Assembly: GCF_965641715.1 (NCBI RefSeq)
Contig: NZ_OZ282453.1
Direction: 5' to 3' (one strand)
Origin: Escherichia coli
Lineage (GTDB): Bacteria > Pseudomonadota > Gammaproteobacteria > Enterobacterales > Enterobacteriaceae
DNA: 64,000 nucleotides
The notes under the pieces were generated by a model. That model was not told the origin of the DNA. It made no database searches and saw only the letters and a program-made list of their open reading frames with translations. Of the stretch, positions 23,745 through 26,557 are shown piece after piece. How positions within the stretch are numbered: position 1 is the first letter of the stretch; every line of letters starts with the position of its first letter. Made by a program: the position numbers and the translations under genes.

Positions 23745-25142
23745 ATTTTTACCCGAGTCGCTAATTTTTGCCGCAAGGTGCTAAGCCGCGAGGAAAGCGA
23801 GGCTGAACAGGCAGTCGCCCGTCCACAGGTGACGGTGATCCCGCGTGAGCAGCATGCTATTTCCCGCAAAGATATCAGTGAAAATGCCCTGAAGGTAATG
23901 TACAGGCTCAATAAAGCGGGATACGAAGCCTGGCTGGTTGGCGGCGGCGTGCGCGACCTGTTACTTGGCAAAAAGCCGAAAGACTTTGACGTAACCACTA
24001 ACGCCACGCCTGAGCAGGTGCGCAAACTGTTCCGTAACTGCCGCCTGGTGGGTCGCCGTTTCCGTCTGGCTCATGTGATGTTTGGCCCAGAGATTATCGA
24101 AGTTGCGACCTTCCGTGGACACCACGAAGGTAACGTCAGCGACCGCACGACCTCCCAACGCGGGCAAAACGGCATGTTGCTGCGCGACAACATTTTCGGC
24201 TCCATCGAAGAAGACGCCCAGCGCCGCGATTTCACTATCAACAGCCTGTATTACAGCGTAGCGGATTTTACCGTCCGTGATTACGTTGGCGGTATGAAGG
24301 ATCTGAAGGACGGCGTTATCCGTCTGATTGGTAACCCGGAAACGCGCTACCGTGAAGATCCGGTACGTATGCTGCGCGCGGTACGTTTTGCCGCCAAATT
24401 GGGTATGCGCATCAGCCCGGAAACCGCAGAACCGATCCCTCGCCTCGCTACCCTGCTGAACGATATCCCACCGGCACGCCTGTTTGAAGAATCGCTTAAA
24501 CTGCTACAAGCGGGCTACGGTTACGAAACCTATAAGCTGCTGTGTGAATATCATCTGTTCCAGCCACTGTTCCCGACCATTACCCGCTACTTCACGGAAA
24601 ATGGCGACAGCCCGATGGAGCGGATCATTGAGCAGGTACTGAAGAACACCGATACGCGTATTCATAACGATATGCGCGTTAACCCGGCGTTTTTGTTTGC
24701 CGCCATGTTCTGGTACCCACTGCTGGAGACGGCACAGAAGATCGCCCAGGAAAGCGGCCTGACCTATCACGACGCTTTCGCGCTGGCGATGAACGACGTG
24801 CTGGACGAAGCCTGCCGTTCACTGGCAATCCCGAAACGTCTGACGACGTTAACCCGCGATATCTGGCAGTTGCAGTTGCGTATGTCCCGACGTCAGGGTA
24901 AACGTGCATGGAAACTGCTGGAGCATCCTAAGTTCCGTGCGGCTTATGACCTGTTGGCCTTGCGAGCTGAAGTTGAACGTAACGCTGAACTGCAGCGTCT
25001 GGTGAAATGGTGGGGTGAGTTCCAGGTTTCCGCGCCACCAGACCAAAAAGGGATGCTCAACGAGCTGGATGAAGAACCGTCACCGCGTCGCCGTACTCGT
25101 CGTCCACGCAAACGCGCACCGCGTCGTGAGGGTACCGCATGA
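23745..25142 (+). CDS. pcnB: Poly(A) polymerase I, non-AUG (ATT) start
   Basis: ORF track opens at TTG 23724; the known product begins at ATT 23745 ([19 protein letters not shown]); no in-frame ATG upstream of the catalytic domain. Confidence 0.85.
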
Positions 25143-25618
25143 CAGTGGCGTATATTGCCATAGGCAGCAATCTGGCCTCTCCGCTGGAGCAGGTCAATGC
25201 TGCCCTGAAAGCATTAGGCGATATCCCTGAAAGCCACATTCTTACCGTTTCTTCGTTTTACCGCACCCCACCGCTGGGGCCGCAAGATCAACCCGATTAC
25301 TTAAACGCAGCCGTGGCGCTGGAAACCTCTCTTGCACCTGAAGAGCTACTCAATCACACACAGCGTATTGAATTGCAGCAAGGTCGCGTCCGTAAAGCTG
25401 AACGCTGGGGACCGCGCACGCTGGATCTCGACATCATGCTGTTTGGTAATGAAGTGATAAATACTGAACGACTGACCGTACCGCACTACGATATGAAAAA
25501 TCGTGGATTTATGCTGTGGCCGCTGTTTGAAATCGCGCCAGAGTTGGTGTTTCCTGATGGGGAAACATTACGTGAAATACTCACTTCACTAGCAGTACCA
25601 CAACCTGCCATCTGGTAA
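25139..25618 (+). CDS. folK: 2-amino-4-hydroxy-6-hydroxymethyldihydropteridine pyrophosphokinase (HPPK)
   Basis: 159 aa; [26 protein letters not shown]; overlaps pcnB stop (ATGA); last ~17 residues differ from the K-12 sequence I recall. Confidence 0.9.
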
Positions 25619-25960
25619 TAGCTGTATTATTTTATTTTCTTGACGAGAGGAATACAAAATGATACGGCTATTTCATCCACCAAGAAAAAATTATTTTCTT
25701 ATCTTACTCCTCACATCCCCCCTTACACATTAAATATACTTAATTTACATTTTAGTTTTTTTTAATTCATTCATGAAATAGCATTTCATGCAAATAGATT
25801 AGGCATTTTTTGTTTAAACGACCTAAAATAACAACAATTCAATACGCCACATAAATATATTCACACCCGTGATAATTCACCCCTATTACATCCTCCAAAA
25901 ACTTTGAGTAATATCCGCTCGCAATATTAATTTCATATAATTTTTGTAAGGATGCATGTA

Positions 25961-26557
25961 ATGAAAAAAGCACTTCTCGCAGCCGCTCTGGTTATGGCTT
26001 CTGGTTCCGCCCTGGCTGTAGATGGTGGTCATATCGACTTTAACGGTATGGTACAGTCCGGTACCTGTAAAGTGGGTGTGGTAGATACTGGTATGCACAG
26101 CGTTACCACTGATGGCGTGGTTACCCTGGATACTGCGAATGTTACTGATACTTTTGCTGAAGTTAGCGCAACTGCTGTCGGTTTACTGCCGAAAGAGTTC
26201 ATGATTTCTGTTGAGTGTGATCCAGGTGCTCCGAAGAATGCTGAGTTAACTATGGGTTCTGCAAGCTACGCGAACACCAGCGGTACCCTGAATAACAATA
26301 TGAACATCACTGTTAACGGTATTGCACCGGCTCAGAACGTAAACATTGCAGTTCATAACATGAAAAACAAAGCTGGCGCTGCTGAAATTAAGCAGGTCCA
26401 TATGAACAACTCTTCTGAAGTTCAGGAACTGACATTAGACGCAGAAGGTAAAGGCCAGTACGTATTTAACGCATCTTACGTTAAAGCACCGAACAGCCCG
26501 GCTGTAACTGCTGGTCATGTAACCACTAACGCGCTGTACACCATTGCTTATAAGTAA
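25961..26557 (+). CDS. yadN: Fimbrial major subunit (YadN-position allele, divergent from K-12)
   Basis: signal peptide MKKALLAAALVMASGSALA, conserved Cys pair, C-terminal YTIAYK beta-strand motif; RBS aagga 8 nt upstream of ATG 25961. Confidence 0.8.
   Translation: MKKALLAAALVMASGSALAVDGGHIDFNGMVQSGTCKVGVVDTGMHSVTTDGVVTLDTANVTDTFAEVSATAVGLLPKEFMISVECDPGAPKNAELTMGSASYANTSGTLNNNMNITVNGIAPAQNVNIAVHNMKNKAGAAEIKQVHMNNSSEVQELTLDAEGKGQYVFNASYVKAPNSPAVTAGHVTTNALYTIAYK

Follow-up and report, generated by a model that had tools for sequence, protein, structure and literature searches.

The 342-bp segment 25619-25960 of the window, by which we mean the whole 64-kb stretch of Escherichia coli DNA that was analysed, is the folK-yadN intergenic spacer of the yad chaperone-usher fimbrial operon. 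The reading that we regard as probable divides it in two: the 5' third would end transcription of the pcnB-folK operon, the 3' two thirds would hold an H-NS-silenced yadN promoter, and the features that had drawn attention in an earlier, sequence-only reading of this DNA (a palindrome, a small ORF and a run of C residues) would be by-products. None of the three looks like a conserved regulatory element when the spacer is set beside its relatives. As a control region it is unexceptional and for the most part known already, and the O157 form of the locus has been the subject of earlier work.

The folK-yadN spacer and its versions in E. coli

The gene order around the spacer is thpR, sfsA, dksA, gluQ, pcnB, folK, a seven-gene fimbrial cluster, panB and panC, with the cluster itself running from yadN through the chaperone, the usher htrE, yadM, yadL and yadK to yadC, followed by panB. 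Upstream lies folK (25139-25618, plus strand), the last gene of pcnB-folK, annotated in E. coli ET350 and with a stop codon that ends at 25618. Downstream lies a divergent form of yadN (25961-26557, plus strand), the gene for the major fimbrial subunit, which matches the Pfam family Fimbrial (PF00419) and is annotated as 'fimbrial protein' in ET350; the ORFs downstream of the spacer carry Fimbrial and PapD domains (Pfam). The locus has the reverse orientation to the K-12 map, and its synteny and its position between folK and panB agree with the annotation of K-12, CFT073 and ET350. The GC content of the spacer is 28.9% (71% AT) compared with 51.7% for the whole window, and AT content is far above average across several hundred bp. 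The sequence-only reading had described an AT-rich 342-bp control region upstream of a major subunit gene, which is confirmed by synteny, Pfam matches and the GC content of 28.9%, and every feature that it pointed to is present in the sequence, with coordinates off by 1-3 bases.

The YadN protein of the window is 40% identical to that of K-12, and FolK is 93% identical to its K-12 counterpart, with all 11 differences within the last 17 residues. FolK is identical to the K-12 protein up to residue 142, and 11 of the 17 terminal residues differ (25568-25618 in the window), which indicates that the exchanged yad cassette begins inside folK. This boundary of the divergent cassette, within the last 17 folK codons, is a point of difference from K-12. 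In O157:H7, the folK stop has moved by one codon, TAA having become TAT, followed by TAG.

At least three versions of the folK-yadN spacer are found in E. coli, none of which can be aligned with another. Megablast searches of 5,426 complete E. coli genomes gave non-overlapping classes, with a K-12-like spacer in 3,056 genomes, a CFT073-like spacer in 481 and the version of the window in 422, carried mostly by O157:H7, O55:H7 and O145 along with a scatter of other lineages. The K-12, CFT073 and EC958 yad promoter regions share with the window the same position between folK and yadN and the operon architecture yadN-ecpD/yadV-htrE-yadMLKC. The spacers of K-12 and CFT073 are also similar in length (369 and 363 bp vs 342 bp) and in GC content (27% and 26% vs 29%), but they cannot be aligned to that of the window outside the ribosome-binding site (RBS) of yadN, where AAGGAT is the sole shared block. 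The full-length spacer is found in only 92-94 of the 422 genomes, and no genome matches the whole spacer at 100%. Base-by-base reading covered 12 E. coli relatives and Escherichia sp. E1V33, and, to obtain chance levels, the 342 bp were shuffled 2,000 times with dinucleotide composition preserved.

Escherichia sp. E1V33 (NZ_RHJI01000003.1) belongs to a different species-level lineage, and its spacer is identical to that of E. coli ET350. The body of its folK is clearly diverged from the folK of the window. This combination suggests that the yad cassette has recently passed from one lineage to another. When one genome of each species was scanned for the conserved 26-mer at the yadN start, E1V33 was the only genome found, so that no deeper phylogenetic footprint is possible. 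Mobile elements have also entered the spacer. In E. coli LP5-1, an IS1 element lies 142 bp into the spacer (break at ~25760), and most of the yad operon is gone, with one 3' fragment of a fimbrial gene remaining before panB. In the O157-like strain 139, a Mu-like element (a helix-turn-helix protein and a Mu transposase gene) lies within the spacer with its break at ~25862, and this insertion splits the spacer into two matching places.

Several known kinds of regulatory element were searched for in the spacer. For an invertible switch of the fimS type, no flanking inverted-repeat pair was found in the spacer, and the neighbours are folK and yadN only, with no recombinase gene adjoining. For a Dam/Lrp switch of the Pap type, a class in which two GATC sites are expected, there are zero GATC in 25619-25960. 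An Rfam scan of 25400-26100 (E up to 1) gave a single meaningless snoRNA match of 18 bits. The repeated motif ATTTCAT/ATGAAAT is present in four copies (3% of shuffles) and was rejected as a candidate, since three copies are left (44% of shuffles) once a private change at 25784 is reverted.

The 5' third and a proposed end of pcnB-folK transcription

A long AT-rich stem-loop of 17 + 5 bp (25617-25672, plus strand) begins in the folK stop codon. It was recognized as a 23-nt inverted repeat (25617-25639 and 25650-25672) and by RNA folding, with a fold of -21.9 kcal/mol (z = -6.6), or -27.4 kcal/mol (z = -5.4) within a context of 101 nt. O145 keeps the hairpin (z = -5.5), and a much weaker one lies within a few bases of the folK stop in the CFT073 version (z = -1.9). 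In K-12, a small AT hairpin with a U tract after folK scores at chance level (z = -0.3 to -1.1); with this score, and with the operon being called Rho-terminated (PMC1636475), an intrinsic terminator after K-12 folK was rejected as a candidate. In the window, the AT-rich stem is followed by UUUCAUCC, with no proper U tract, and the terminator consensus scan made no call of an intrinsic terminator here. Covariation was looked for in the hairpin, in which four positions only are variable and none of the changes is compensatory.

RNA that is rich in C and poor in G is a hallmark of Rho-utilization (rut) sites. A stretch of this kind, a putative rut-like site by its composition, follows the hairpin at 25673-25774 (plus strand). 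It contains 22 C to 1 G per 78 nt (for example at 25668-25745), and the only 78-nt segments of the 64 kb with at most one G are found here. The K-12 and CFT073 versions share the bias of C over G at the same relative position just after folK, and the compositional description of a rut site as at least ~80 nt of C-rich, G-poor RNA after a stop codon applies to this stretch. The pcnB-folK operon of K-12 has been described as Rho-dependently terminated (Mohanty and Kushner, PMC1636475). Judged by composition alone, the G-poor stretch of the window may thus be rut-like and serve Rho-dependent termination of folK read-through. From composition and position, pcnB-folK transcription would be ended in the 5' third of the spacer by the hairpin (25617-25672) and then the C-rich stretch (25673-25774), and the two together may keep housekeeping transcription out of the fimbrial operon.

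Part of this arrangement is missing from most genomes that carry the version of the window. A repeat search found two 10-bp direct repeats, TTATTTTCTT (25632-25641 and 25691-25700), and the 59-bp segment 25642-25700 that they bound is absent in O157:H7, O55:H7 and related genomes. The deletion class consists of ~330 of 422-423 genomes, whose matches begin only at query position 62 or 73, and every O157:H7 genome among the matches listed carries the deleted form. The yad locus of EHEC O157:H7 (Sakai ECs0139-0145; 86-24) has the same version of spacer and operon as the window, the O157 spacer being ~96% identical over the shared 270 bp, but O157:H7 and O55:H7 are without the 59 bp, and with it the 3' arm of the hairpin and the start of the small ORF, and have CCCCTC in place of the run of six C. 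The hairpin is destroyed by the deletion in O157 (z = -0.6), where its 5' arm is kept and its 3' arm is lacking. With ~78% of the genomes of this version being without the hairpin, it is dispensable. With ethanolamine present, the native promoter drives yad expression in EHEC 86-24 (O157:H7), and a yad deletion is complemented by a clone that carries this promoter (PMC11287998). We infer that 86-24 has the deleted form, as do all the O157:H7 genomes among the matches listed; if so, the deleted 59 bp would be dispensable for yad expression.

The hairpin might also be without function in RNA, as an inverted repeat that came in with the foreign cassette, such as the remnant of a mobile-element end or a site that acts at the DNA level. 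This is an unlikely explanation. It is consistent with the lack of covariation and of a canonical U tract, with the loss of the hairpin in the O157 lineage without obvious consequence, and with its being single-copy per genome (in searches with 111-bp and 85-bp queries covering part of the hairpin). However, a start exactly at the folK stop codon fits a role at a 3' end, CFT073 also has a hairpin near the stop, though a weaker one and with K-12 at chance, and retention of the 5' arm in O157 argues that the repeat is not a discrete inserted unit. The hairpin is read here as a predicted 3'-end structure, terminator or stabilizer, of the pcnB-folK transcripts. It has also been considered that the hairpin and the C-rich stretch form an insulator, so that the deletion fixed in the O157:H7 and O55:H7 lineage, by removing the hairpin, would let folK read-through drive yadN past H-NS silencing, a proposal to which we give little credence.

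Candidate yadN promoters and probable H-NS silencing

The yad operon is repressed by H-NS in K-12 and in the ExPEC strains CFT073 and EC958, and the ~200 bp upstream of CFT073 yadN show a rise of more than 100-fold in promoter activity without H-NS (PMC13245861). The K-12 yadN/folK spacer has been listed among the 'promoter islands' associated with H-NS (Panyukov and Ozoline 2013, PMC3661553). Human serum induces Yad (PMC13245861), and overproduction of SlyA raises yadN 2.4-fold (PMC5797941). The view of the sequence-only reading that this is an H-NS-silenced kind of control region is therefore borne out for the yad locus in its K-12, CFT073 and EC958 versions (PMC13245861, PMC3661553). H-NS repression, the SlyA response and serum induction were measured on versions other than that of the window, which is probably also H-NS-silenced, as its composition and synteny suggest. 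In the mechanism proposed here, the 3' two thirds of the spacer would hold the yadN promoter, 5' UTR and RBS within the 71% AT tract, H-NS would coat and silence this tract, and environmental cues or antagonists such as SlyA would relieve the silencing.

A sigma-70-like site, TAGGCA-18-TAAAAT (25800-25829, plus strand), agrees with the consensus at 9 of 12 positions and is a candidate yadN promoter. It is the one site found in a sigma-70 consensus scan of the spacer, against an expectation of 2.7 from shuffles; the scan therefore has no discriminating power and does not locate the promoter. Promoter islands resemble the spacer in that its K-12 counterpart is listed among them and in that the version of the window is AT-rich and foreign-looking, but their dense promoter-like sites are not reproduced here, with one sigma-70 site and a number below that of shuffles. 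An alternative candidate -10 element is a perfect TATAAT (25936-25941, plus strand), which was read directly, has no recognizable -35 and does not vary among the sequences read. The part of the spacer presumed to hold the promoter or 5' UTR also contains another C-rich, G-poor stretch (25827-25904), with 23-25 C to 3-4 G per 78 nt.

The yadN RBS is AAGGA at 25948-25952 (plus strand), with the start ATG 8 nt after it at 25961-25963, as annotated in ET350, and the AAGGAT of this site is shared with K-12 and CFT073. The RBS sequence GUAAGGAUGC (25945-25956) is similar to the core of RUACARGGAUGU, the CsrA binding motif given in PMC11287998. Repression of yad by CsrA in EDL933 is the subject of a report cited in that paper, and no CsrA effect on yad was seen in strain 86-24 (PMC11287998). 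The segment UAUUACAUCC (25884-25893) can pair with GGAUGCAUGUAAUG (25950-25963), covering the Shine-Dalgarno sequence (SD) and start of yadN if the 5' UTR begins upstream of 25884, and both pairing segments are invariant in the sequences read. This pairing was rejected as a candidate for sequestering the SD and AUG, with a fold z of only -1.2 to -1.6 and no covariation.

The palindrome, the small ORF and the C run

The dyad CATGAAAT-agc-ATTTCATG, identified by inverted-repeat search, has arms of 8 bp at 25772-25779 and 25783-25790. The perfect palindrome of the sequence-only reading is thus present, with arms of 8 rather than 10 bp and at 25772-25790 rather than at about 25771-25793. It is made perfect by a private T at 25784: all 13 relatives read (the 12 E. 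coli and Escherichia sp. E1V33) have C, which gives ACTTCATG and 7 of 8 paired arm positions, and O145 has a second mismatch that leaves 6 of 8. An exact copy of the 57-bp stretch around the palindrome occurs in none of the 5,426 genomes, of which 420 have a match, the best with one mismatch. Perfect inverted repeats with arms no shorter than 8 and a loop no longer than 10 are present in 15% of shuffles, and the RNA fold of the palindrome is not unusual (z = -1.3). The perfect palindrome is one private C-to-T change, at chance level, and a by-product rather than a dedicated element.

The small ORF (25659-25733, plus strand) was taken from the ORF list and is a 24-codon frame with an ATG start, MIRLFHPPRKNYFLILLLTSPLTH, preceded by the SD-like GAGAGGA (25645-25651, plus strand) 7 nt before the ATG, just as the sequence-only reading had described. 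With both strands counted, 80% of shuffles contain an ATG ORF of 24 codons or more, and 7% contain one with an SD core 5-12 nt upstream. At 15% and 80%, the palindrome and the ORF are both unremarkable; the combination of ORF and SD, like the run of six C (a C6 or G6 run occurs in 4.5% of shuffles), is only mildly unusual. The SD lies in the apical part of the hairpin (apical loop and inner stem) and the ATG in its 3' arm, ~300 bp upstream of yadN. The 59-bp deletion removes both SD and ATG in ~330 of 422 genomes, ACG replaces the ATG in the O145 type (~33 genomes), and the frame is shifted at codon 21-22 in variants of the C run with five or eight residues. Five substitutions were seen in the ORF (R3Q, P7S, S20P/P21S, P21L and H24Y), all of them nonsynonymous. 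In roughly 90% of the genomes with the version of the window the ORF is deleted, start-less or frameshifted, and it is intact in at most ~45 of 422. It has no Pfam match. The ORF is best judged, from this comparison of sequences, as a chance frame running across the hairpin and the C-rich stretch, a by-product and apparently not a gene.

The C6 homopolymer (25717-25722, plus strand) was read from the sequence and its relatives and appears to be a mutational hotspot; the sequence-only reading was right about its presence and placed it slightly too far upstream, at about 25714-25720. The 85-bp stretch 25661-25745, C6 included, is matched exactly by 27 of the 94 full-length genomes, and 15 of the 94 are 1 bp shorter here, of which one, SM107, was read directly and has C5. 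SCU-316 is 2 bp longer, with C8. The run is interrupted by T in JX21CE8 (CCCTCC), in the O145 sequence read (CCCTCCC, for a class of ~33 genomes) and in O157 TW14359 and EC2641, the two sequences read from the deletion class (CCCCTC, for a class of ~330 genomes). Dense substitutions and indels make 25715-25721 the most variable patch of the spacer, and diversifying selection could explain this variability as well as a mutational hotspot. The run lies 239 bp upstream of the yadN ATG, and in the consensus scan no predicted promoter-like site spans 25717-25722. A T8 homopolymer at 25756-25763 (plus strand) is a second length-polymorphic run, with T7 in LH50-c, ES5 and O145.

Each of these features could in principle serve regulation. 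An operator for a dimeric transcription factor controlling yadN would be well placed at 25772-25790, since at ~170-190 bp upstream of yadN the dyad is close enough to serve as an upstream regulator site, and an imperfect dyad with 7 of 8 arm positions is found in the sequences read with the version of the window, O145 excepted at 6 of 8. Yet the flank 25729-25818 is conserved about equally, so that conservation does not single out the dyad, nothing corresponds to it in the K-12 and CFT073 versions, and O145 shows a further loss of pairing. With the perfect form a private single-base change that has no exact match among 5,426 genomes and an 8-bp dyad in 15% of shuffles, the conservation check goes against a conserved regulatory palindrome, and an operator is improbable. 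To our knowledge, the dyad matches none of the operator consensus sequences of CRP, FNR, Fur, ArgR and LexA. A leader peptide or small protein that regulates the expression of yad or folK has even less to recommend it. The GAGAGGA 7 nt upstream of the ATG, a combination in only 7% of shuffles, is in its favour, but a hairpin of -22 kcal/mol pairs or encloses this SD and the ATG, the frame follows directly after folK and upstream of any plausible yadN promoter, and the deletion of SD and ATG, the ACG start of O145, the frameshifts in C5 and C8, the five nonsynonymous substitutions and the lack of a Pfam match all count against it. The sequence-only reading had itself named a lack of conservation as a ground for abandoning the idea, and the conservation check found just this; a leader peptide is close to refuted already and is hardly to be expected.

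Homopolymer tracts switch some fimbrial and outer-membrane-protein promoters in other bacteria; for efficient switching by slippage, a run of five to eight residues is short. A contingency role for the C tract, in which slipped-strand changes of length switch or tune yad expression in phase variation, would fit the differences in its length among otherwise nearly identical relatives (98.9% or more), the dense cluster of substitutions and indels at 25715-25721 and the rarity of a C6 or G6 run in shuffles. Against this, the tract is short at C5-C8, a T interrupts it in JX21CE8 and in the O157 and O145 types, which together make up most genomes of the version, it lies outside any predicted promoter, and the neighbouring T8 varies too, as neutral instability of homopolymers predicts. 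Some of the 1-bp differences could be assembly errors, one C5 genome having been read directly, and Yad has been stated by the authors of the H-NS study to be not phase-variable (PMC13245861). The slippage-prone tract proposed by the sequence-only reading therefore holds in its mutational sense, the length check having found C5, C6 and C8, and finds no support as a switch, which we consider a very doubtful prospect. C6 is rather seen as a mutation-prone homopolymer in the C-rich stretch, a by-product whose exact length is evidently unconstrained. In line with the insulator proposal, and with as little credence, variation between C5, C6 and C8 could tune Rho loading rather than promoter strength.

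Phase-variable promoters with homopolymers include those of Bordetella fim2 and fim3, with their C stretch, and the tracts of Neisseria opc and porA. The spacer resembles these systems in having poly-C upstream of a major fimbrial subunit gene and differences in length between isolates. It differs from them in that its run has 5-8 residues, is mostly interrupted and lies ~240 bp from the start, not in a promoter spacer. For this class of switch, an uninterrupted tract was looked for across the population and is not maintained, and the tract is not located in a promoter spacer.

Altogether, these results change little, as the yad operon and its H-NS silencing have already been described and the three features that had been flagged did not stand up to the comparison of genomes. 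The existence of at least three unalignable versions means that regulatory results obtained with K-12 or CFT073 are not transferable base by base to the O157-type version. As a lead that we hold with small confidence, loss of the hairpin in the O157:H7 lineage perhaps admits housekeeping read-through into yadN. If the hairpin and C-rich stretch do act as an insulator, this would help to explain the expression of EHEC yad from its 'native promoter' in laboratory conditions.
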